Below the pieces are notes generated by a model. It was given only the letters and a program-made list of their open reading frames with translations, was not told the DNA's origin and searched no databases. This document shows, piece after piece, positions 49,545 through 61,475 of a DNA stretch of 64,000 bases (position 1 is the stretch's first letter; every line of letters begins with the position of its first letter). Origin of the DNA: an uncultured Actinomycetes bacterium (lineage in GTDB: Bacteria > Actinomycetota > Thermoleophilia > RBG-16-64-13); the NCBI GenBank assembly GCA_963747275.1, contig CAVVEI010000012.1, positions 86,388-150,387 on the forward strand, read 5' to 3'. Both the position numbers and the translations under genes were made by a program.

Positions 49545-50563
49545 ATGGGCGAGATGGACCGCAGAACCTTCCTGCTTGCCACGGGTCGCTGGCTGGCTGT
49601 GGCCGCCCTCGCTCCCACCGTCTCGGGCTGCGCCCGACTGCTTCGCTGGTCGGACTCGCAGGGAGGCCTGAACGACAGCGACACGGTCTCGGTCGGTGGG
49701 CTCGAGACATCGACCACCGAGCTCGGCGCCCCGGCCACCACGACCACCTCGCTGGCCGTCCCCGACCTCGCGGTCATCACAGGCGAGTCCCCGGATCTGA
49801 ACGTCCGTGCGCGCCGTAGCTCAATTGGGCGGCATGGAACGCTTCGTCAAACGGAACGCCAAGGTCGTGGTCAAGCCGAACGTCCTCACGGGTAGGGCCC
49901 CCGAATACGCGGTGTGCACCAACCCTCTGGTGATCGGCGCCATCGTACGCATGTGCTATGAAGCTGGTGCGGCCGAGGTCACGGTTCTCGACAATCCCAC
50001 CAGCAGCGCGCGTGCCGCTTTCCAGGAGGCCGGCCTGACCCAGGCCACACAAGAGGCCGGGGGCACCGTCAAGTACCTCAGCAACCGCAACTTCGAGACC
50101 GTGAAGATACCCGGCGCCGAGGCCCTGACCTCATGGCCCCTGGTCACCGACGTCTTCGAGGCCGACACCTTCATCAACGTGCCCATCTGCAAGCACCATG
50201 GCGGAGCCGGGCTCACGCTGGCCACCAAGAACCTGATGGGCATAATGGGAGGCAACCGGGGCAAGATCCACACCAGGATGGCGGCAAAGCTCGCCGACCT
50301 CTGCTACCATCGTCAAGCCGCAACTTGTCATACTGGATGCTTACCGCACCCTTGTGCGCAACGGGCCAGGCGGAGGCAGCCTCAAAGACGTCACCATGCC
50401 CAAAGTCTGCGTGGCGGGCACCAACCAGGTGGCCATAGATGCCTATGGCTGCAAGATCATGGGGTGGGACCCGATGGACCTCGCCACGGTGGTTGAAGGC
50501 GCCCGCCGGGGCCAGGGCGACCCCGACCTGTCTCACTACAACATCTACCAGGGGAGCACGTGA
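49545..50563 (+). CDS. Tat-signal DUF362 family protein (two frameshifts)
   Basis: MDRRTFLL..VSGC; LGGMERFV, VVKPN, INVP.CKHH, KNLMG, VAIDAY. Confidence 0.82.
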
Positions 50564-52116
50564 TGGCGCGCCGCGGCCGCAGGCGACGCGGCCTGCACCG
50601 CTACAGGCGGCTGTTTCAAGTCTTCTTCTTGCTGGTCTTTCTCACGCTCCTCACCCTGACCTTCTGGCCCTTGGGCACGCTGCTCATGAGCGCCTTCCTG
50701 CTTGCCGACCCGCTGTTGGCAGTCAATTCGGTGGTCAACGGCGTGCTCCGCTGGGAGTTCCTGCTGGCCCTACCGGTCTTGCTCAGCCCCCTCTTCATCG
50801 GTCGTGCCTTCTGCGGATATGCCTGCCCGATGGGCTTCATGATCGAGTTGTTCGGGCCGCGCCGCGAGCGCCATCCCGGGCCGCGAGCGCGCAAAGTGCT
50901 CCGTAAGATACCCGCGTTCGGTCTGGTGGTGGTGCTGGCTCTCATAGTGTTCGGCAGCGCCGTGTTCTTGGTCTTCGATCCTATCTCTCTGTTCACACGC
51001 TCCGCCTCGACGTTGGTGTACCCCACGGTAGACCGTGGCCTCCGACTGATCGGGGACCTGCTCTACTTGGCCCCTCCGCTGCAGGGTGGAGTCGATTCGG
51101 CCACCGAGTTCCTCACCGGCCGGCTGGTTTTCGGCAACGGTCTCGCCTACAGACTCCAGCTCGTCATTCTGGTCATGTTCGTCGCTCTCCTTGCCATCTC
51201 ATGGATAGAACGGCGTATATGGTGCCGCCACTTGTGCCCCCTGGGCGCGCTGCTGGGACTGGTCGGCCGCGCCGCCATCTTCGGCCGAGTGATCGAAGAT
51301 AGCCAGTGCACCACCTGCGGAGCCTGCGCGGACGCATGTCCCATGGATGCTGTCCGCGACAGTGGCCACTCCACCGACTGTTCGCGCTGCGAGGCCGGAC
51401 TGGAGTGTGCCGATGCCTGCCCGCAGAATGCCATCCACTGGGGACTCAAGCCCCGCAAAGAACACGCGCACGATCCCAGCCGCCGTGCCCTCCTCAAGGC
51501 GGGCGGCCTAGCGGTAGTCGGAGGGTTCTTTCTCTTCACCGGGCTGGGCCGCATCCAGCGCAACACTTGGCTCATCCGACCCCCGGGCTCCAGGAGCGAG
51601 CTCGACTTCTTGGCCACCTGTGCCCGTTGCGCACAGTGCATGAAGTCCTGCCCCACCAACGTCATCCAGCCGGCGGTCTTCGACGCCGGCATCGAAGGCT
51701 TCTTCACGCCGCAGATGGACTACCGCAGGGGCTACTGCGACTGGAACTGTAACGAGTGCGGCAAGGTCTGCCCCACCCAGGCCATCCGCGAGTTGCCTCT
51801 CGAGCAGAAGCGCCTGAAGGTCATCGGAAGGGCATATATCGATCACAACACCTGCATACCCTGGTCTGAAGGGCACGACTGCCTACTCTGCCAGGAGGTC
51901 TGCCCGGTGCCCGAGAAGGCCATCATCTTCAGCACCGGCAAGACGTCGAGCGCCCTCCCCGTAGCCGAGGGTGGGCAACAGGCACCGGCCAAGCTCCCAA
52001 TAGTCGTTCCTAACCGCTGCATAGGCTGCGGAAACTGTGAGTACAACTGTCCGGTGAACAACGGAGCCGCGATTCGGGTCCGCTCGGTCACGCAGACACA
52101 GATCCTCTCTCGCTAA
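50560..52116 (+). CDS. NapH/MauN-like membrane polyferredoxin fused to NapG/MauM-like domain
   Basis: GRAFCGYACPMG, WCRHLCPLG, several CxxCxxCxxxCP, internal SRRALL, IRPPG. Confidence 0.85.
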   Translation: MMARRGRRRRGLHRYRRLFQVFFLLVFLTLLTLTFWPLGTLLMSAFLLADPLLAVNSVVNGVLRWEFLLALPVLLSPLFIGRAFCGYACPMGFMIELFGPRRERHPGPRARKVLRKIPAFGLVVVLALIVFGSAVFLVFDPISLFTRSASTLVYPTVDRGLRLIGDLLYLAPPLQGGVDSATEFLTGRLVFGNGLAYRLQLVILVMFVALLAISWIERRIWCRHLCPLGALLGLVGRAAIFGRVIEDSQCTTCGACADACPMDAVRDSGHSTDCSRCEAGLECADACPQNAIHWGLKPRKEHAHDPSRRALLKAGGLAVVGGFFLFTGLGRIQRNTWLIRPPGSRSELDFLATCARCAQCMKSCPTNVIQPAVFDAGIEGFFTPQMDYRRGYCDWNCNECGKVCPTQAIRELPLEQKRLKVIGRAYIDHNTCIPWSEGHDCLLCQEVCPVPEKAIIFSTGKTSSALPVAEGGQQAPAKLPIVVPNRCIGCGNCEYNCPVNNGAAIRVRSVTQTQILSR

Positions 52117-52126
52117 CGCTTGCGCC

Positions 52127-52182
52127 CCCCATGCCCCTTTGCACCGGCAGCGCGGTGCGACTCCTCTCAAAGGGGCATGGGG
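52127..52182. terminator. Long hairpin after the polyferredoxin gene
   Basis: CCCCATGCCCCTTTG ... CAAAGGGGCATGGGG (15 bp). Confidence 0.55.
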
Positions 52183-52263
52183 AGCGGCGTTTCATAGCCC
52201 AATACGGGGGTCACGGGCCGCGTGGCGCCGAGTCACAACGGGAGGGTCCAAACTCCGAACCAT

Positions 52264-52357
52264 GCCGTCAGAACGTCGCCGTGGAGTGGTCGAGAGACCT
52301 TGAACGCGGGCGGAGCGGCGACGTTCTGACGGCCCCCTTGAACGCGGACGGAGCGGC
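52264..52357. repeat. Conserved-loop hairpin element, copy A
   Basis: Arms 52264-52282 and 52315-52333; loop GGAGTGGTCGAGAGACCTTGAACGCGGGCGGA; trailing CCTTGAACGCGGACGGAGCGG. Confidence 0.9.
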
Positions 52358-52401
52358 AAAGCCCTTGCCGTGCCGGAGCGCCTCCAGCTAGGACCGTCGC
52401 A

Positions 52402-52468
52402 GTCACCGGGCATCGCTGCGCAGTGTCGAGAGACCTTGAACGCGGACGGAGCAGCGATGCCCGGTGAC
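52402..52468. repeat. Conserved-loop hairpin element, copy B
   Basis: Perfect 18-bp arms GTCACCGGGCATCGCTGC/GCAGCGATGCCCGGTGAC; loop GCAGTGTCGAGAGACCTTGAACGCGGACGGA. Confidence 0.9.
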
Positions 52469-52549
52469 CGCCGCAAGGTTTCGTGTCCGACCTCTCAGCT
52501 AGGCTGTGCTGGTCAGGCCTGCGCGACCAAATCTTGAGAGGAGAGACCA

Positions 52550-54707
52550 GCGCCGGACATCGACTACAGATCGGACGAGACCCCCATCGGCAGGGTACTT
52601 GCCGGGCTCAACGACCAACAGCGGGCAGCCGTACTTCACGGAGGCGAGCCCCTGCTGGTGGTCGCCGGCGCGGGCACCGGCAAGACAGCTACCCTCGCTC
52701 ATCGTGTGGCCTACCGCATAGCTATGGGCAGCGACCCGGGGAGCATCTTGCTGCTCACTTTCACCCGCAGGGCCGCCGCAGAGATGTTGCGACGTGTCGA
52801 TGAGATACTGCGGCGCCTCGATACCGAGACCCGCTCTCAAGGGAGCGCCGCGCCCGCTGCGCGGGCGCCGGCCTCGGGCAAGGTCTGGGGGGGCACATTT
52901 CACGCGATCGCCGCCCGGCTCCTCCGCCTGCACGGCCGCGCCATCGGGCTTGACCCGTCCTTCACCATCCTCGACCGATCCGATGCCGAAGACCTCATGG
53001 GCATGTTGCGCACCGAGTTGGGGCTGGCCAAGAACGATCGCCGCTTCCCACTCAAGAGCACCTGCACCGATATCTACAGCCGCTGCGTCAACGCCCGTGA
53101 GTCTGTGGAGCAGGCGGTCGCAGAACACTTCCCGTGGTGCAAGGAGGAGGTGGAGGACCTCCGCCGCCTCTTCGCGGCCTACGTGGATCACAAACAGGAA
53201 CGAGCCGTGCTCGACTACGACGACCTGCTGCTGTTTTGGCATGGGCTGCTGACCGAGCCCCGCGTCGCTCGTTCCATACGCGGCTGTTTCAAGCACGTCC
53301 TAGTCGACGAATACCAAGACACCAATCGACTGCAGGCGGAGACCCTGCGGCTTCTCTGTCCCGCTGGCGATGACCTCACCGTGGTCGGGGATGACGCTCA
53401 GGCCATCTACTCGTTCCGGGCTGCCACAGTAGACAACATCCTTGACTTCCCGAAGCAGTTCCCCGGGACGCGGATAGTGACCCTCGAGCAGAACTACCGC
53501 AGCACCCAGCCCATCCTCGATAGCACCAACGAGGTGATAGCCTGCGCCGCCGAACGCCATGCCAAGACACTCTGGTCTACGCGCAGAGGTGGGGCCAAAC
53601 CCCAGTTCGTGGCATGTCACGACGAGAACGAGCAGACTGAGTTCGTAGTCCGATCGGTGCTGGAGCATCGGGAGGCCGGCCTCGCCCTGCGCCGGCAGGC
53701 GGTGCTGTTCCGCGCCTCACATCACAGCCTGGCTCTGGAGCTGGAACTCGCGCGGCGCAACATCCCTTTTCGCAAGTACGGCGGCCTACGCTTCGTCGAG
53801 ACTGCCCACGTCAAAGACCTGCTTGCCTTTCTACGGCTGGCCGAGAACCCGAGAGACCTCATGGCCGGGACAAGGGTGCTCATGCTGCTGCCGGGCGTCG
53901 GGCCCAAGAGGGCCAAGACCCTACTCGACACTCTGATGGCAGCACCGCCCCCCGATGGTGAGGCGGCCACCGAAGTCTCTCCATTTCGCGACTTGGGCGA
54001 GCCTGCCTTCGCCTTCCCCAGCCGCGGCCGAAGCCTGGCCCCAGCTGGCAGAGTTGATGGCGACGATCTCGAGTCGCAGTCCGGGCGACCTGCCTTCACA
54101 GCTCAAGCGCATCAGGCTCTTCTACATTCCCCTCATGGAGCGCCTCTACGACAACGCTCGCGCTCGACTCATGGACCTCGAACAACTCGAGTGGCTGGCC
54201 GGCCGCTATCCCGACCGCGAACGCTTTCTCACCGAGGTCACCCTGGACCCACCTGCGTACACTGAAGACCTGGCCGGACCCCCGCTCTTGGACGAAGACT
54301 ATCTCATCCTCTCCACCATGCACTCGGCCAAGGGTCTCGAATGGGATGCGGTCTTCGTCATACACGCCTCCGATGGCAACATGCCCTCCGATATGGCCAC
54401 CGGCACCGCCGAAGAGATCGAAGAGGAGCGCCGCCTGTTCTATGTTGCGCTCACCCGCGCCAAGGACTGGCTACACGTCCTCTATCCGCTCCGCTACTAT
54501 GTGCACCCGCGCAGCTTCAGCGACACGCACGGATACGCACAGCCTACGCGCTTTGTGACCGATAGGGTCCGTGCGACCATGCAGCCACTCACAGCCTTAG
54601 AGTTCCTAGACCCCGAGTTGGCAGTCGGCGCTGACGGGGACGGCTGCGCTTCCGCCGGAGCGGTGACCACGGAAGACATCCGGCAGCGCCTCAAGTCGCT
54701 ACTGTAG
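52550..54707 (+). CDS. UvrD/PcrA-like SF1 helicase (start uncertain; frameshift near 53985)
   Basis: GLNDQQRAAV, AGAGTGKT, TFTRRAA, VDEYQDTN, VGDDAQAIYSFR, NYRS, STMHSAKGLEW, EERRLFYVALTRAK. Confidence 0.9.
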
Positions 54708-54781
54708 CCAGCACGGGGTGAGGAACGTGCGATAATCGGCGCGAGGTCTGCGTCAACACCGGCACACGAAGGGAGCGCGGG

Positions 54782-55018
54782 ATGTTCCATAACATCGGCT
54801 GGGGGGAGATACTAGTCGTCCTTGCCGTCATCCTGGTCATCTTCGGGGCGGCGAAGCTGCCACAGATCGCCCACTCCGTCGGCAAGTCGCTGACCAGCTT
54901 CAAGAAGGGGCTCAGAGAGACCGCCGATGATGTGAAGGACGCGATCAAAGAGGATGAGACTGAATCTACGGTCGCGTCCGACGGCAAAGATAAGCGCTCA
55001 AGCGATACTGGCGAGTAG
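54782..55018 (+). CDS. tatA: Twin-arginine translocase TatA
   Basis: IGWGEILVVLAVILVIFGAAKLP..GKSLTSFKKG. Confidence 0.93.
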   Translation: MFHNIGWGEILVVLAVILVIFGAAKLPQIAHSVGKSLTSFKKGLRETADDVKDAIKEDETESTVASDGKDKRSSDTGE

Positions 55019-55050
55019 CCGACCGACACCCAGGGCAGTTAGAGGGCCTG

Positions 55051-57777
55051 ATGAGTCAGAGTAAGGCACGGCCCCTGCCCGACAAGCAGGAATGGTACCG
55101 GCTCACCAAGGAACAGACCCTCGCCGAACTCGGCACCGACCTTGAGGTAGGCCTTGACGCTGAGGCTGTGCGGTCAAGGCTGGCCGAATACGGTCCCAAC
55201 GCCATCACATCACGCAAGGGCCCTGGGCACTTGAGGCGCGCTCTCTCTCAGTTCACTCAGCCCCTCATCCTGATACTCATCGCGGCCGGCGCGGTGACAG
55301 CATACCTGCAGGAGTGGGTGGACTCCGGAGTGATCTTCGGGGTGGTGTTAGTGAACGCGCTGGTGGGCTTCCTGCAAGAGGCAAAGGCCGTCAAGGCGAT
55401 AGAGGCTCTGTCCCGCTCCATGGTTACCCAAGCCGTGGTCTTGCGGAGCGGCCAGCGCGTCGTGTTGTCCGCCCATGACCTTGTACCTGGCGACGTGGTC
55501 ATCCTCCAAGCTGGTGACAAAGTCCCCGCCGACCTGCGCTTGGTCCAATCGCGAGATCTCAGGGTGGACGAGTCGACCCTCACCGGTGAGTCGCTGCCGG
55601 TGGACAAGACCACCGACCCGCTGGACGCGCAGACACCTCTGGCCGACCGCTCCAACATGAGCTACGCCACCACTCTGGTCACGGCCGGACAAGCAGTGGG
55701 GGTGGTGATCGCCACGGGCGACGGCACAGAGGTGGGCCGCATCTCTGACTTGATCACCAAAGTCCAGGATCACCAGACTCCGCTCACGCGTAAGATCGCC
55801 CAGTTCAGCAAGTATCTGCTTGTCGTGATCCTCGTGATGGCGGGGGTCACGGCGGGAGTCGGCCTGCTTCGCGGCGAGGGCGCGGTGGAGATGTTCCTCG
55901 CCGCTGTGGCTCTGGCCGTAGGCGCGATACCCGAAGGACTTCCGGCGGCGGTCACCATCGTCCTTGCCATCGGTGTTTCGAGAATGGCTCAACGCCGGGC
56001 CGTAATACGCAAGCTGCCCGCAGTAGAGACACTGGGTAGCACAACGGTCATCTGTTCCGACAAGACGGGCACCCTGACCCAGAACCAGATGACAGTGAAG
56101 CGAATAGCAGTCAGCGACGCTGTCTATGAGGTCAGCGGTGCCGGCTACGCTCCTGAGGGAGCCATCAAGACCAATGAAGGGGCATCCGCCGGGAACCCCG
56201 CGGCTGAAGTCCTCCGAGCGGGCGCCCTCTGCAACGATAGTTCTCTGCGCCAAAATGAGGGTCAGTGGCAAATACAGGGCGATCCCACCGAGGCTGCTTT
56301 GCTTGTATCGGCGGCGAAAGCCGGGCTCGATCGCGCCGAGGCCGATCGCATGTTCCCCCGCCTGGACACAGTCCCCTTCGAGTCACAGCACCAATACATG
56401 GCCACGCTGCACCGTACCGGCGACAAGGACCGAGTGGTATACGTAAAGGGCGCCGTGGAGAAGATCTTGGAGCGCTGCAGCACGCAACTGAACGCGGACG
56501 GCTCGGTAGGTGCGGCGGACGGGCGGCAGATCGAGGCACAAGCCTCGAGCATGGCCTCAGAGGGCATGCGCGTCTTGGCCTTCGCTCGCAAGGCACTGGA
56601 CGCTGAGGTAGATCGCATCGTCCACGAAGATCTGCAAGAAGGGCTGGTCTTTCTTGGCCTGCAGGGCATGATAGATCCGCCCCGTCCAGAAGCGATTGCA
56701 GCCGTGGAGGCCTGTCATGCGGCTGGAGTGCAGGTGAAGATGATCACGGGCGACCATGTGCTCACGGCTTCGGCCATCGCGCGCCAACTGCGACTCGGCG
56801 GCCTCGGGCACGCAGGCTCAGAGCTCACCACTATCTCCGGTGTCCAACTAGAGGCGCTCTCTGACGAAGAGCTGAGCGAAGTCGCGGAGAAGACCCACGT
56901 GTTTGCCCGGGTCACGCCCGAACAGAAACTGCGGTTGGTTGAAGCCCTGCAGGGGCGCGGGCACGTGGTGGCCATGACCGGCGACGGCGTCAACGATGCC
57001 CCTGCCCTGCGCCAGGCCGACATAGGCGTGGCCATGGGCATAACCGGCACAGAGGTTTCAAAAGAGGCCGCCGATATGGTGCTGACCGACGACAACTTCG
57101 CTTCCATAGAGGCCGCCGTCGAAGAAGGCCGCGGGGTCTTCGACAACTTGACCAAGTTCATCGCGTGGACCCTCCCCACCAACCTCGGAGAAGGCCTGGT
57201 GATTCTTGCGGCGGTGTTTGCTGGGGTCGCCCTGCCCATCCTGCCTGTCCAGATACTCTGGATCAATATGACCACCGCGGTCCTGCTGGGGCTGATGCTG
57301 GCCTTTGAGCCGAAAGAGACCGGCATCATGCAGCGCCCACCCCGAGCGCCCGGGGATCCGATCCTTACCCGGAGCCTCATCGGTCGCGTCTTCACCGTTG
57401 GGTTCCTGCTACTAGTGGCCTCTTTTGGCCTCTTTGAATATGCGGTGCGCACCGGTCACAGCCTCGCCGCAGCCCGGACCATGGCCGTCAACGTCTTCGT
57501 CTTCGGCGAGATGGCCTACCTGTTCAACTGCCGCTCGCTGACCCAAGCGTCCTGGAAGAGCAGCTTCTTCACCAACAAATACCTTTTCGGAGGAGTGGGC
57601 TTGATGGCCGCCCTGCAGGTCGCCTACACCTACGTGCCCAGCATGAACAGCCTCTTTGGGAGCGCACCGATGGGAGCGTTGGGATGGGCTCTGGTCTCGG
57701 CCGCCGCGGTCGTCATTCACGCGGTCATCGAACTGGAGAAGGCACTCAAGAGAAGAGGGGCCACTAGGGGAAAGTGA
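55051..57777 (+). CDS. Cation-transporting P-type ATPase (type IIA, Ca2+-like)
   Basis: TGES, IPEGLP, DKTGT, KGAVE, MITGD, TGDGVND, QILWIN. Confidence 0.95.
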
Positions 57778-57807
57778 CCGCCTAGTCTGCCCTGCACGGG
57801 CACGCTC

Positions 57808-57816
57808 TGCTAGAAT
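57808..57816 (+). promoter_or_regulatory. Extended -10 element for the tRNA-Ser/Arg pair
   Basis: TGCTAGAAT upstream of the tRNAs. Confidence 0.55.
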
Positions 57817-57852
57817 ATGCGCTCGCTTAGGCGGCGGGCCTCGTCGCCATAT

Positions 57853-57946
57853 GGAGAAGTGGCCGAGAGGCTGAAGGCGCTCGCCTGCTAAGCGAGTGAA
57901 GGAGTGAATGCTCCTTCCGAGGGTTCGAATCCCTCCTTCTCCGCCA
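57853..57946 (+). tRNA. tRNA-Ser(GCT)
   Basis: GGAGAAG/CTTCTCC acceptor, CTCGC-CTGCTAA-GCGAG anticodon arm, long variable arm, encoded CCA. Confidence 0.96.
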
Positions 57947-57950
57947 ATGT

Positions 57951-58024
57951 GCGCCGGTAGCTCAGTTGGATAGAGCGTTGGTCTACGAAACCAGAGGTCG
58001 GAGGTTCGAATCCTCTCCGGCGCA
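57951..58024 (+). tRNA. tRNA-Arg(ACG)
   Basis: GCGCCGG/CCGGCGC acceptor, TTGGT-CTACGAA-ACCAG anticodon arm, GGTTCGAATCC. Confidence 0.96.
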
Positions 58025-58143
58025 CCTCGCCAGCACAGAACCTCCTGTTTTGGCGCTCTGTGGCTCCTAACGCCCGGAACCAGGGCCCGGAGGCCTGAGT
58101 CATACCTAGTGATCCCTGCAGTTGAAAACGACCCTGAGGTCCC

Positions 58144-58743
58144 ATGAACCGACCCCGCATAGTAGGTATAGTCTCTGCCGTGCTCGGCTCCAGCGCCGGC
58201 TTCCTGGCGCTCAGCCGCTGGCACCTTGCCGGCACCATCACCGGCGCCATCCTGATGCCCGTCATCTTCACCCTTGTTTCGTTCGGCTCGCACGAGAGCC
58301 TGGATAAGATAGGCGAGTGGATGCGCCGGCGCGTACTGAGGAAAGCGGGCCCTCCGGCGGAGGGTCCGGTCTCGGCCGAGGCTGGCGCCGCAGACGCACG
58401 CACCGAAGAAACCCCGGCGCCGCAGACCAAGAGGCGCGCAGCGCACAGTCTGCATTGGTCGGTGGTGACCTTGGCCTGCCTTGCTTTCGCGGTGAGTGTC
58501 TATTCCCTGACTCACACTGGAGAAGGCACCACAATACTTCGCGAGAAGGTCGTGCAGACGGTCACCGTCACCTCAGAGCGGTCCGCCCTCTCAGTGGCAA
58601 GTGGCAACATCAGCGACGCGGCTGCCGGTGGGAGCGTGGGCAACCTGCCGACGACCACCATCACGACTCCGGGCGTGGGCGACCCGCCGGAGACCACGGT
58701 CTCGACCACGGCCATCCAGACTACGACCACCACCCTGCCCTAG
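58144..58743 (+). CDS. Hypothetical membrane protein with Thr-rich tail
   Basis: Three hydrophobic segments and a TTTTT tail; GAGG RBS. Confidence 0.65.
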   Translation: MNRPRIVGIVSAVLGSSAGFLALSRWHLAGTITGAILMPVIFTLVSFGSHESLDKIGEWMRRRVLRKAGPPAEGPVSAEAGAADARTEETPAPQTKRRAAHSLHWSVVTLACLAFAVSVYSLTHTGEGTTILREKVVQTVTVTSERSALSVASGNISDAAAGGSVGNLPTTTITTPGVGDPPETTVSTTAIQTTTTTLP

Positions 58744-58768
58744 CACGAGAGCGCAGGGCGCGATGGGG

Positions 58769-59674
58769 TCAATCCCGTCGCGCTCTATTAAGGGCCTCTT
58801 CGTCGCAGAGGGGGTCGCTTGAGCGCTTGCAGCCGTAACTGGCATAGGCTACGCCATTCTTGGCCTTGAGTTTGACGGAGTACATGAGGTCGTCCGCCAT
58901 CTTCACCAGCGCTTCGCCGTCTGCCGGTGGTTCGTGACAAGTGACCGCGCCCGCGCTGAACGTTACCGGCCAACCGCCCGTACGCATCTCTTGGGTAACA
59001 CGCTCGATTACTTCGGCGACCGCGGCCCGCGCAGCCTCTTCATCCGTCTCGGGACACAAGAAGGCGAACTCGTCACCCCCCAGCCGGGCTACGATGTCGG
59101 TCCGCCGCAGGCGAGCCTTCGCACACTCCGCTACTACTCGCAACACCTTGTCGCCAACGAGGTGACCGAAGCTGTCGTTCACCGCCTTGAAGCCATCCAA
59201 GTCCATGTAGACGAGGGTCAGTGGATGACCATAGCGACCGAGGCGCTCCAACTCGCCCTCGAGTGACTCATAGAAGAGTGCCGAGTTTGCGGCACCTGTG
59301 AGATTGTCGACGTGCGAAGACTGCTCGAGCCGTCTGATTGCTCTGTGCAACACCCAGAGCACGTAAATGATCGTGGCGAAGAGGGCAAGCCGGATAGCAG
59401 TGTTCAGTCCCAAAATGAGTGCGCTTGGATGGACCCCATCGACAATATCGGCCGCGAGCCAGATGCCGCCAGAGACTATCGCAGTGCCCGCCCCAAATGC
59501 CGGGCCCGCCAGCCAGGCCACCAGTCCGATGGGGAGCACGTAGAGAGAAGAGAGCACCACTTCGTGTCCGCTGAAGTAGTCCACCACGCCCAGCAGGGCA
59601 CTGAGGACCAACCCCACCACCACCACACCCCACCGCGGCAGACTACCCCGACCGGTCGCCCATCTGAACCTCAC
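58769..59674 (-). CDS. Membrane diguanylate cyclase
   Basis: About four TM helices, DNLTG, DLDGFKAVND, RRTD I-site, RLGGDEF. Confidence 0.93.
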   Translation of the reverse strand: MRFRWATGRGSLPRWGVVVVGLVLSALLGVVDYFSGHEVVLSSLYVLPIGLVAWLAGPAFGAGTAIVSGGIWLAADIVDGVHPSALILGLNTAIRLALFATIIYVLWVLHRAIRRLEQSSHVDNLTGAANSALFYESLEGELERLGRYGHPLTLVYMDLDGFKAVNDSFGHLVGDKVLRVVAECAKARLRRTDIVARLGGDEFAFLCPETDEEAARAAVAEVIERVTQEMRTGGWPVTFSAGAVTCHEPPADGEALVKMADDLMYSVKLKAKNGVAYASYGCKRSSDPLCDEEALNRARRD

Positions 59675-59868
59675 GCGTGCTCCTTTGTTCGTATCCTATT
59701 GTTATCGACGTCTCGCGCTCGCGCATGAGCGATAGACCCACGAACCCTCGCTTCCACAACCGGGGTGACTGGCGCGCCGGCCTCGGCTCGTATTACACTG
59801 GACAGCACAAGACTAGGAGAGCAGGCAGTGTCGTGGGCCGCAGGACGGCCCGGTGTGGGAGGAGATCG

Positions 59869-60099
59869 GTGGAAGACAAGCGCAACAAGCTGCAACAGAA
59901 GTACTACGTTGAGCGCATCGATGGTCGCGACCGAGCCGGCGGTGATCGCGCGGGCTCCAAGTACTTCGTCTTGGACTACATCCACGACCCCTATTCGCTC
60001 CCTGCACTCGAGGCCTACGCGCAGGCCTGCTACAAGGACTTTCCCAACCTCTCCGAAGAGGTGAGGGCACTCATCCAGCAACTCAAGAGCGCCATGTAG
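59869..60099 (+). CDS. Small hypothetical protein, phage-like
   Basis: GGAGG RBS before GTG; KYYVERIDGRD..KYFVLD..HDPYSLPALEAYA.AC. Confidence 0.7.
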   Translation: MEDKRNKLQQKYYVERIDGRDRAGGDRAGSKYFVLDYIHDPYSLPALEAYAQACYKDFPNLSEEVRALIQQLKSAM

Positions 60100-60252
60100 C
60101 AGCTGCTTTCGGCCCTGATCTGAGGGATAGATCATTGCCGAGAAGACCCGCAAACCCGCTCCCAGATTGAGGGCCGCTGGGAGCGAAAAGTCGGCCGCTG
60201 CGACCACTCGCACAGACCGTGGTTTTCCTGCTCCTCGGCACCTCTTGGCACC

Positions 60253-60280
60253 TTGACTCTGGGGCCGATCGGACTACAAT
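60253..60280 (+). promoter_or_regulatory. Sigma70-type promoter
   Basis: TTGACT-N16-TACAAT in an AT-enriched patch. Confidence 0.65.
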
Positions 60281-60287
60281 TCAAATT

Positions 60288-60441
60288 GAGTCCCGAGAGT
60301 TCACACGCAGCGTCTGAGGAACTCACAAGGGGGTCCGGGGAGGAAACGCGGAGGTAAACGGCCGCGCGGTACATTGAGCCGGATCTGCAGTGGGAGCTGT
60401 TGAAAGGCGAAAAGCGAGTTCACTCGGGGCTCGCTTTTTTT
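60288..60441 (+). ncRNA. Candidate ~150-nt structured RNA (6S-like or attenuator; family unassigned)
   Basis: Bounded by a promoter and a terminator, no convincing ORF; 5' GAGTCCCGAG can pair with 3' CTCGGGGCTC; inner GGTCCGG/CCGGATC and GCGG/CCGC stems. Confidence 0.55.
60410..60441 (+). terminator. Rho-independent terminator
   Basis: AAAAGCGAGTTC-ACTCG-GGGCTCGC followed by T7. Confidence 0.8.
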
Positions 60442-60572
60442 GTTGCCTGGACCCTCCCCCGCGCGCCCAACTACCCCTAGTCTTGGCCACGTGGTGCCTG
60501 CGCGACGCGGGCTAGAACGACGGCCACGAGACGCGGGCCCCAACACACAGACGGGCTCGAAGACCTCACTGT

Positions 60573-60669
60573 GCCGCCAGGGACATCGCCGCGGAGTGGT
60601 CGAGAGACCTTGAACGCGGGCGACGCGGTGACGTCCCTGGCGGCCCCCTTGAACGCGGGCGAAGCGGTG
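60573..60669. repeat. Conserved-loop hairpin element, copy C
   Basis: Arms 60573-60592 and 60625-60644; loop GGAGTGGTCGAGAGACCTTGAACGCGGGCGAC; trailing CCTTGAACGCGGGCGAAGCGG. Confidence 0.9.
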
Positions 60670-60753
60670 AAGTCCAACCCAACGTGCGGGTTCCTGTCCG
60701 GTGGGTCGGCTATGCTCCCTCTCACGGTGGACAGACGAGACCGGAGGAGTCCC

Positions 60754-60975
60754 ATGTTGATATCAGTGCTCGCAGGCTCGATCATTCTTGTGGCGTGCGT
60801 CGCCTACGTCATCTATCGTAAGTTCTCGGTCACAAGGCAGCACATAGAGTTCGAGGCGCCGCAGGACGGCGTGGCCGCCATCTATCTGGACATACGCGAA
60901 GACACAGTGTGTGGGCTCCATATCCTCCACAAGGACGGCACTGTCAGCGAGGTACGCGAGCTTCGCGCTGCTTGA
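60754..60975 (+). CDS. Small single-pass membrane protein
   Basis: GGAGGAG RBS, ATG at 60754, N-terminal TM helix. Confidence 0.65.
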   Translation: MLISVLAGSIILVACVAYVIYRKFSVTRQHIEFEAPQDGVAAIYLDIREDTVCGLHILHKDGTVSEVRELRAA

Positions 60976-60998
60976 AGCACGGCCTGTATCATGAAGGT

Positions 60999-61475
60999 AT
61001 GGACCTGCCGAAGAGTGAAGACCACCGCCTCATGGCTCTTGCCTTGGATGAAGCCCGCCTCGCAGCCAAGCAGGACGAGGTCCCCGTGGGCGCTGTGCTC
61101 GTGGTGGCAGGTGAGGTCATCGCCTCCCGTGGGAATGAACGCGAGCGTCGCCACGACCCCACTGCCCACGCCGAGATGCTCGTACTGCGCGACGGCGCCG
61201 GTCTTGTGGGCGGGTGGCGGCTGAGCGAGGCCACCCTCTATGTCACTTTGGAGCCTTGCGCGATGTGCGCGGGCGCGATCGTCCTCGCGCGCATCAAGAG
61301 ACTCGTGTACGGAGCCGATGATCCCAAGGCCGGGGCCGCCGGCACCATCTTCAACATCGTCGACCACCCGGCGCTCAACCATCGACCCGAGGTGAGGGCC
61401 GGCGTCATGGCCGACGAGTCGGCGGAGTTGCTGCGTGAGTTCTTCGCCGAACGGCGGGAACGCGACCTCTTGTGA
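60999..61475 (+). CDS. tadA: tRNA adenosine(34) deaminase
   Basis: EVPVGAV, DPTAHAE, TLEPCAMC, DPKAGA, LNH. Confidence 0.95.
   Translation: MDLPKSEDHRLMALALDEARLAAKQDEVPVGAVLVVAGEVIASRGNERERRHDPTAHAEMLVLRDGAGLVGGWRLSEATLYVTLEPCAMCAGAIVLARIKRLVYGADDPKAGAAGTIFNIVDHPALNHRPEVRAGVMADESAELLREFFAERRERDLL

Follow-up and report, generated by a model that had tools for sequence, protein, structure and literature searches.

A lineage-restricted superfamily of intergenic palindromes with site-specific stems and a conserved, covarying tip at gene ends of uncultured Thermoleophilia

The stretch of DNA analysed here (the window) comprises 64,000 nt of contig CAVVEI010000012.1, positions 86,388 to 150,387 of the forward strand, from the assembly GCA_963747275.1 of an uncultured Actinomycetes bacterium (Thermoleophilia; RBG-16-64-13). 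It carries three intergenic hairpins, at positions 52264-52333, 52402-52468 and 60573-60644, in which arms of 19, 18 and 20 nt flank 31-32 nt and both arms differ between the copies. All three belong to type A within a superfamily of palindromic intergenic elements, restricted to one lineage and comprising about 140 copies overall, in which a site-specific stem carries a conserved apical module. The elements show covariation, sit in a fixed orientation with respect to gene ends and have one strand that folds better than the other. They could be explained as a gene-end hairpin module, similar to TRIT or to repetitive extragenic palindromes (REP), that is read by a factor specific for the tip, a proposal to which we give about an even chance.

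Each element is built from a stem (P1) of 17-25 bp, with a sequence specific to its site, capped by an apical module that comprises purine-rich internal loops, a 2-bp helix and a small terminal hairpin. Across 90 aligned copies, read in the orientation of the covariance model (the model strand), the 5′ half runs from the P1 arm through a purine run, GGGGAGGAG or GGAAGAG, and UCG into the terminal hairpin; the 3′ half continues with CGC, then AGCCGGAG or AGCUGGA, and ends with the second P1 arm. In these alignments, which were fitted to the model and include kin that are not independent, standard pairs occupy 97.5% of the paired cells, compared to 61% after shuffling of the partners (none of 500 shuffles reached the observed value) and to 35-48% when the partners were slid, and changes on both sides occurred in 19 of the 22 model pairs. 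The idea, put forward in an earlier note on this DNA, that the hairpins are selected for their structure is therefore supported.

The covariation extends into the tip. The P2 pair is G-C in 62 of the 90 copies, A-U in 27 and another combination in 1, and the P3 pair is C-G in 56, U-A in 32 and another combination in 1. The terminal hairpin (P3) has in addition been lengthened by at least three unrelated self-complementary inserts, which differ by lineage. In the 81 copies that could be parsed, the pair of loop positions beside P1 is either G.A (49) or A.G (14), and the neighbouring pair is either G.G (48) or A.A (15). Such non-Watson-Crick covariation between purines is the signature of a defined three-dimensional motif and not of a duplex binding site. 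Together, the Watson-Crick and purine-purine covariation of this compact tip points to a specific binding partner.

Tips of type A, those of the window hairpins, are a rearranged variant of the apical module. The small GGTC-GAGA-GACC tetraloop hairpin that was described inside their loops fits 11 of the 34 unique copies readable in that register, and an alternative 5-bp register, TCGAG/CTYGA, is perfectly Watson-Crick in 8 of the 34 and contains one G.U in a further 8. Similarly, the stems do not vary as freely as had been proposed. Their outer part is indeed site-specific and compensated, but the loop-proximal 10-13 bp of the arms are semi-conserved within a subtype.

The extent of the family was examined with two covariance models, R1, built from 11 hairpins, and R2. 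In the source genome (a 2.08-Mb assembly in 24 contigs, 80.6% complete) R1 found 10 copies at E <= 4.2e-6 and R2 a further 6, giving at least 16 full copies. Of 61 genomes that represent the same taxonomic family, R1 matched 18 and R2 30, the latter belonging to 8 of 19 genera and having at most 16 R2 matches each; the union of both models covers 32 of the 61 genomes. Neither R1 nor R2 had a match among 125 genomes drawn from ten further families in the class. Copy numbers are about 6-20 per genome. One group, called ‘family 2’, can be aligned in every column, once it is reverse-complemented, with the short-loop copies named ‘type D’ in a sister genus, and thus belongs to the same superfamily in the opposite orientation.

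Searches outside the two models added no further members. A scan with a degenerate core, run on one genome per species and possibly omitting the source genome and its close relatives, returned at least 118 stretches that were all judged to be chance matches. Among the core-pattern matches listed, a stem score flagged 7 of the first 80 loci, and RNAfold never placed the motif in the loop of a long hairpin in the 118 examined. A census of hairpins in the source genome, seeded with 9-mers and insensitive as a method, yielded 24 with long loops and no additional large families. With Rfam 15 at gathering thresholds, the window yielded five tRNAs only; at E <= 10 over 52000-61000, the best match on an element was mir-4859, with 23.6 bits against a threshold of 100. 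Eighteen copy-bearing loci gave no Rfam match, and for a type F copy there was no relevant match at E <= 10. A search among sequencing runs listed three DNA runs sharing a small part of the sequence words and no RNA run, a result without bearing on expression. The literature on gene-end palindromes and on LOTUS and NYN domains, which is not searchable by sequence, offered precedents of the kind and none on this element. The motif can thus be kept as undescribed. The earlier note had named outcomes that would count against it, a match to a known Rfam family or to the end of an insertion sequence, or further copies without complementary arms. None of these occurred: no Rfam family matched, and the additional copies keep their arms complementary.

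In the window, the three hairpins first described were recovered from the sequence with the expected stems, loops and pairing exceptions. Mispairs are limited to one T.G in copy 1 and to one A.C and one G.T in copy 3, copy 2 having none, and a 21-nt core has three zero-mismatch matches, compared to none in 100 dinucleotide-preserving shuffles. They are not the whole set, since a fourth, inverted copy and two 5′-truncated copies had been missed, and the three represent one subtype of a superfamily that extends across the taxonomic family. The window therefore contains four full and two truncated copies. These features, with two neighbouring motifs, are as follows.

52259..52336, plus strand: copy 1, type A; hairpin 52264-52333 with a 19-bp stem and a 32-nt apical region
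52396..52472, plus strand: copy 2, type A; hairpin 52402-52468 with a perfect 18-bp stem, extendable to 21 bp
60569..60646, plus strand: copy 3, type A; hairpin 60573-60644 with a 20-bp stem containing one A.C and one G.T
52119..52190, minus strand: fourth full copy, of the sister subtype ‘family 2’ (type D-like); hairpin 52123-52186, model orientation on the minus strand
52334..52372, plus strand: 5′-truncated copy, the right half of the apical region and a 3′-arm-like stretch, immediately 3′ of copy 1
60646..60683, plus strand: 5′-truncated copy, immediately 3′ of copy 3
52484..52505, plus strand: promoter-like motif TGTCCG-N10-TANNNT preceding the UvrD-like gene; context, outside the repeat
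60695..60716, plus strand: second TGTCCG-N10-TANNNT motif, preceding a small open reading frame (ORF) and the TadA-like deaminase gene; context only

Copies 1, 2 and 3 match R1 with 87.6 bits (E 6.6e-16), 82.8 bits (E 6.4e-15) and 85.9 bits (E 1.5e-15), respectively, and copy 1 folds at -47.4 kcal/mol in RNAfold. An orthologue of copy 3 in relative G001 has different yet compensated arms. The fourth copy, on the minus strand, matches R2 with 55.6 bits (E 5.7e-9) and cross-matches R1 at E 0.0039; its loop is found again elsewhere in the same genome. The truncated copy behind copy 1 holds the CTTGAACGCGG motif once more, at 52337, and the one behind copy 3 gives a partial R1 match (model positions 40-56 at 60647-60663). 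The same architecture of a full copy followed by a truncated one recurs after the copy at contig C12:41398.

Copies 1 and 2 occupy the spacer between a gene for a 4Fe-4S cluster protein (50560-52116) and the UvrD-like gene, and copy 3 lies upstream of the small ORF and the TadA-like gene. The nearness to the UvrD-like gene, pointed out before, is not the rule. Across about 140 copies, the usual arrangement is that one fixed end of the element abuts a stop codon, which belongs to an opposite-strand gene. With neighbours called by a crude ORF picker based on the third codon position (GC3), the gene on the 3′ side, in model orientation, is on the opposite strand for 39 of 55 copies in a first set and for 60 of 84 in a second. 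Within the first set, 21 copies have this gene's stop codon at -6 to +10 nt from the last stem pair; in the second, the 60 opposite-strand 3′ genes are at a median distance of 24.5 nt from the element, 25 of them at most 10 nt away. Same-strand genes on the 5′ side are a median of 173 nt away and only 1 of 45 is within 10 nt (second set). Most commonly the element is found between convergent genes, namely for 22 of the 53 and 36 of the 77 copies in which both neighbours were called. The inverted fourth copy of the window follows this rule relative to the 4Fe-4S gene, as it begins 6 nt past the TAA stop (52114-52116). Copies 1-3 belong to the minority class without an abutted gene.

The two strands of the element are not equivalent. 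In P1 of 56 unique copies, G.U outnumbers A.C by 62:6 when the model strand is read, whereas the reverse strand gives 14:36. A second set gave 52:16 as judged by model pairs, 41:10 in previously unused loci and 81:10 by an RNAfold walk, and the model strand was the more stable in 79 of 90 copies. The G.U wobbles are clustered, 33 of 61 and 38 of 81 being found 4-9 bp below the tip. Many of them are shared by descent; as judged by eye, the independent events of the first set number about 40 for G.U, compared to 6 for A.C. This polarity is paradoxical, because the favoured strand is antisense to the abutted gene and a simple hairpin of the 3′ untranslated region would predict the opposite G.U bias. 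Transcription read-through from an upstream gene on the same strand was considered as the cause and rejected, the bias being the same with and without such a gene. Replication direction was likewise rejected as the cause of orientation, since copies in opposite orientation lie 2.4 kb apart (contig C19) and about 15 kb apart (G001:C5). The usual transcription- or replication-linked C-to-T asymmetries would predict a bias of the opposite sign. In four neighbour configurations the G.U to A.C ratio is alike (31:3, 57:5, 18:2 and 10:3). Since the bias is equal in all contexts and the orientation flips within 2-15 kb, the polarity belongs to the element itself.

Several positions are shared between genomes, with orthologous 3′ flanks named from Pfam and translations: the genes of the principal sigma factor (rpoD), the [FeFe]-hydrogenase large subunit (hydA), a GltD-like oxidoreductase and a NYN-LOTUS protein. 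At these shared positions, arms are 20-50% identical and apical regions 53-88%, so that the conserved part is the tip and not the stem, the reverse of classical REPs, as the earlier note had recognised. The site downstream of rpoD is occupied in 5 of 30 genomes examined, and there a compensated A-T to G-C stem change separates the copy in G000 from that in its nearest relative G013.

Two side observations concern the rpoD region. Contig C9:1-1412 repeats the region C12:66650-67979, including the element and a degenerate family-2 loop, with about 91% protein identity and a broken C-terminal reading frame; it either stems from a second strain, was mis-binned or is a decaying paralogue. Moreover, a conserved GGTCAAAC(C) is found a few tens of nt 5′ of the rpoD hairpin (model orientation) in G000 (C12:~66640), G004, G012 and G005, in the last of which it occurs downstream of rpoD although only a plain hairpin is present there.

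Other sites show gain and exchange. The 4Fe-4S/UvrD spacer, which holds four copies in about 370 nt here, is about 170 nt long and empty in G003 and G005, where the gene order is kept. Truncated copies always lack the 5′ part (three right halves and no left half in the source genome), and several copies within one genome have near-identical tips with unrelated outer arms. A tandem duplication of about 256 nt at C15:99374-99707 includes an element and, from the GltD-like gene that it abuts, about 20 nt of the 3′ end, and is a segmental duplication rather than a transposition. This pattern of turnover suggests long residence under pairing constraint, combined with local duplication and with conversion between copies that affects the tip and inner stem.

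Could the elements nevertheless be selfish? They could be non-autonomous mobile elements propagated as single-stranded DNA, with a strand-specific enzyme recognising the tip, as in REP/RAYT or in palindromic elements derived from IS200/IS605, and with any effect on the host being incidental. A polarity that is intrinsic and independent of neighbouring genes in the four contexts would be expected of such elements, as would the gain of copies in the 4Fe-4S/UvrD spacer, the tandem copies, the exclusively 5′ truncation and the near-identical tips on unrelated outer arms. Several elements in relatives are moreover nested in a further inverted repeat of 8-11 bp made by their flanks, an arrangement suggestive either of a location inside the loop of a previous hairpin or of outward growth of the palindromes. 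Against this, the Y1 transposase (RAYT, PF01797) was found neither in the source genome, 80.6% complete, nor in five copy-bearing relatives, the same search being positive in 6 of 14 control genomes. Reverse transcriptase (RVT_1, PF00078) and IS110 DEDD (PF01548) domains had no match in the source genome, integrases and other transposase families not having been searched. Metagenome-assembled genomes often lose mobile genes. The ORFs between paired copies encode no transposase-like product, and no conserved flank position, target motif or target duplication was detected in 133 copies. Finally, positions are kept across genera with their stems paired, which neutral decay of dead copies would not give. 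We therefore hold a selfish origin to be rather unlikely, though deserving of real weight. A guide-RNA function was also tried and rejected: the 20 arms of the 10 R1 copies match, by blastn-short in their own genome, only the partner arm, sister copies or chance stretches of 14-15 nt.

The placement at gene ends might instead reflect lineage-specific intrinsic terminators, often bidirectional, since GC-rich hairpins of 20 bp at gene ends, many of them between convergent genes (the 22 of 53 and 36 of 77 given above), have the expected location. The U-tract is missing, however: of 133 copies, only 6 on the model strand and 13 on the reverse strand have at least 4 T among the first 8 nt past the hairpin. 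A conserved tip with non-Watson-Crick covariation is not needed for termination. The genome also has canonical terminators with an A-tract, hairpin and T-tract. One such bidirectional A-tract/GC-hairpin/T-tract terminator, at window 60418-60447 in the spacer upstream of copy 3, shows that the organism uses them too, and hints at a small unannotated transcript in 60214-60440. In the precedent of TRIT, little overlap with mapped termination sites, 2-4%, is given in the accessible part of the report (bioRxiv 10.1101/2022.06.01.494293). Canonical intrinsic termination is therefore unlikely.

Alternatively, free-standing small RNA genes or cis-antisense RNAs could be transcribed in model orientation, heading for the abutted gene's 3′ end. 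According to the G.U bias it is the model strand that folds, and the apical module resembles a structured RNA motif. Nevertheless, no promoter-like signal was found upstream: TANNNT occurs 27 times on the model strand, with no positional peak, and 54 times on the other side in 133 stretches of 100 nt. There is also no terminator tail, and outside the hairpin nothing is conserved except neighbouring copies. This makes such genes quite improbable.

The last possibility relates to the promoter-like motif TGTCCG-N10-TANNNT. It has two matches in the window, compared to 0.24 expected, is present also at locus L031 in G001, and is similar to the RecA-independent DNA-damage promoter of actinobacteria, a resemblance that would suit UvrD. 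A double-stranded DNA operator framed by inverted repeats and regulating a downstream promoter would agree with window copies 2 and 3 lying 11-48 nt upstream of it, but is highly improbable, since the motif follows just 3 of 137 copies, representing two independent loci, since most copies face gene ends and not promoters, and since compensatory changes, G.U polarity and covarying tip hairpins are unexpected for duplex recognition. The -10/-35 region at 52484-52505 is common to the UvrD promoters of G003 and G005, both of which are without the repeat.

We thus return to the gene-end hairpin module read by a tip-specific factor. The functional form would be a single-stranded structure, most likely RNA and less likely extruded DNA. 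Its apical module could serve as the docking site of a candidate factor, which may process or protect transcript ends, or insulate neighbouring genes. The family appears to have no transposase of its own and to spread through local duplication and conversion between copies. Several observations weigh on the other side. No partner protein was identified for the element, and the strand that folds better runs antisense to the abutted gene. The alignments behind the pair counts were fitted to the model, and the context counts depend on the crude ORF picker. Upstream, the model strand shows no -10-like enrichment among the 27 TANNNT. Differing subtypes occur at one site within a genus, both at rpoD (B/C and A) and at the NYN-LOTUS gene (B and E), so that part of the positional conservation could be due to recolonisation or conversion and not to descent. 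What the sequences show is the structure with its covariation, placement, strand polarity and distribution, from which the RNA form, the existence of the factor and its effect on expression are inferred.

One candidate for this factor is suggested by the most widely shared site, the 3′ end of a gene whose product carries, according to Pfam, NYN and OST-HTH domains. An element in the usual orientation stands directly behind the NYN-LOTUS stop codon at 19 of 59 loci examined, in 9 genera, 4 of these matches being weak (E 0.008-0.03), and several further genomes have a plain hairpin at the same position. Here, an outer inverted repeat of 14-16 nt pairs the last codons and TAG stop of the gene with a downstream complement, as seen at loci L028 (G000:C19), L178 (G001), L051 (G031), L323 (G069) and L303 (G083). 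This repeat changes together with a synonymous GAA/GAG difference between genera. We know of no bacterial substrate for this class of proteins. The tip of the model strand is G-rich, and this G-rich strand is antisense to the NYN mRNA. In the accessible part of the source, G-rich RNA is bound by LOTUS domains, including one of two bacterial ones tested (PMC7498356), and the G-rich tip would fit this preference, a lead rather than evidence. The phyletic distribution was tried as a link and gave none: the NYN domain is present in 57 of the 61 genomes regardless of element matches, so that presence and absence do not discriminate. The apical module may conceivably be the recognition tag of this NYN-LOTUS (LabA/MARF1-like) endoribonuclease, which on the sequences at hand we consider doubtful.

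The NYN-LOTUS gene on contig C19 is split (69086-70045 and 69483-69851), as is the UvrD-like gene of the window, in two overlapping reading frames (52658-54265 and 53955-54707). These splits are either real frameshifts or assembly indel errors.

Comparison with known systems places the family among gene-end palindromes. Like REP, BIME and REPIN, the elements are dispersed extragenic palindromes, often located at gene 3′ ends and clustered with incomplete copies, vary in presence among close relatives, and have a hairpin of which one strand is the recognised form. In the broad sense of multi-copy imperfect extragenic palindromes with partial copies and variation between relatives, they are REP-like. 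REP stems are conserved with variable loops, however, and the situation here is the reverse. In addition, no RAYT gene was found in the six genomes searched and no conserved flanking tag in the 133 copies. The attC sites of integrons are also imperfect palindromes positioned right after the stop codon of an ORF, with an antisense strand that folds and a structure that outweighs arm sequence. In attC, the base of the stem is conserved, the centre is variable and the sites form cassette arrays beside an integrase, whereas here the tip is conserved, no conserved foot or flank positions were found, and copies are dispersed behind housekeeping genes (rpoD, hydA). Correia (CREE) and ERIC repeats resemble the present elements as repeats co-transcribed, here presumably, with their neighbours, the long duplexes being candidate RNase III substrates that shape 3′ ends; they differ as sequences of 100-160 nt similar to miniature inverted-repeat transposable elements, with terminal inverted repeats and target duplications, neither of which was seen here. 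Processing of Correia by RNase III is mentioned in PMC13714241.

The closest likeness is to TRIT of Mycobacterium, given in the available part of PMC3152330 as a conserved stem-loop of 147 copies per genome, in a very narrow window at stop codons and restricted to one genus, for which an additional factor was suspected by its authors. Both are lineage-restricted multi-copy hairpins conserved in sequence and structure, largely palindromic and positioned at stop codons with overlap of the coding end, as far as these excerpts describe TRIT, and a dedicated factor is suspected for both. The narrow distribution around stop codons is found here as well (the 21 copies at -6 to +10 nt and the 25 of 60 within 10 nt). 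TRIT 3′ ends are suggestive of RNase III cleavage, and processing was recently proposed in the section at hand of PMC13714241. The present family differs in several ways. By the description of its authors, TRIT is conserved in the double-stranded part, where here the stem varies and the tip is conserved. The copy number of TRIT, 147 per genome in the excerpt, contrasts with about 6-20 here. A fixed orientation and strand polarity, observed here, are not reported for TRIT in the available parts of PMC3152330, PMC13714241 and bioRxiv 10.1101/2022.06.01.494293.

Taken together, these results describe a new family within a kind of gene-end palindromic repeat already described. Such repeats are common, and their functions and readers are mostly unknown; the role of TRIT in M. 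tuberculosis is still debated fifteen years after its description, to judge from the accessible parts of the sources. Even if the elements are merely selfish, the two covariance models are useful for annotation, since they locate about 6-20 intergenic sites in each genome of a lineage that is uncultured. The present case is informative in combining a compact covarying tip, a fixed orientation to the abutted stop and a polarity that contradicts a simple 3′ untranslated hairpin, and resolving this paradox would tell whether such repeats act as sense RNA, as antisense RNA or as extruded DNA. Furthermore, the recurrent link to the NYN-LOTUS RNase gene provides a concrete and testable candidate. 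If that candidate were true, the dispersed copies would be a portable tag placing chosen transcript ends (those of rpoD, hydA and others) under the control of a NYN-LOTUS RNase, and they would be the first natural substrates for bacterial proteins of this class.

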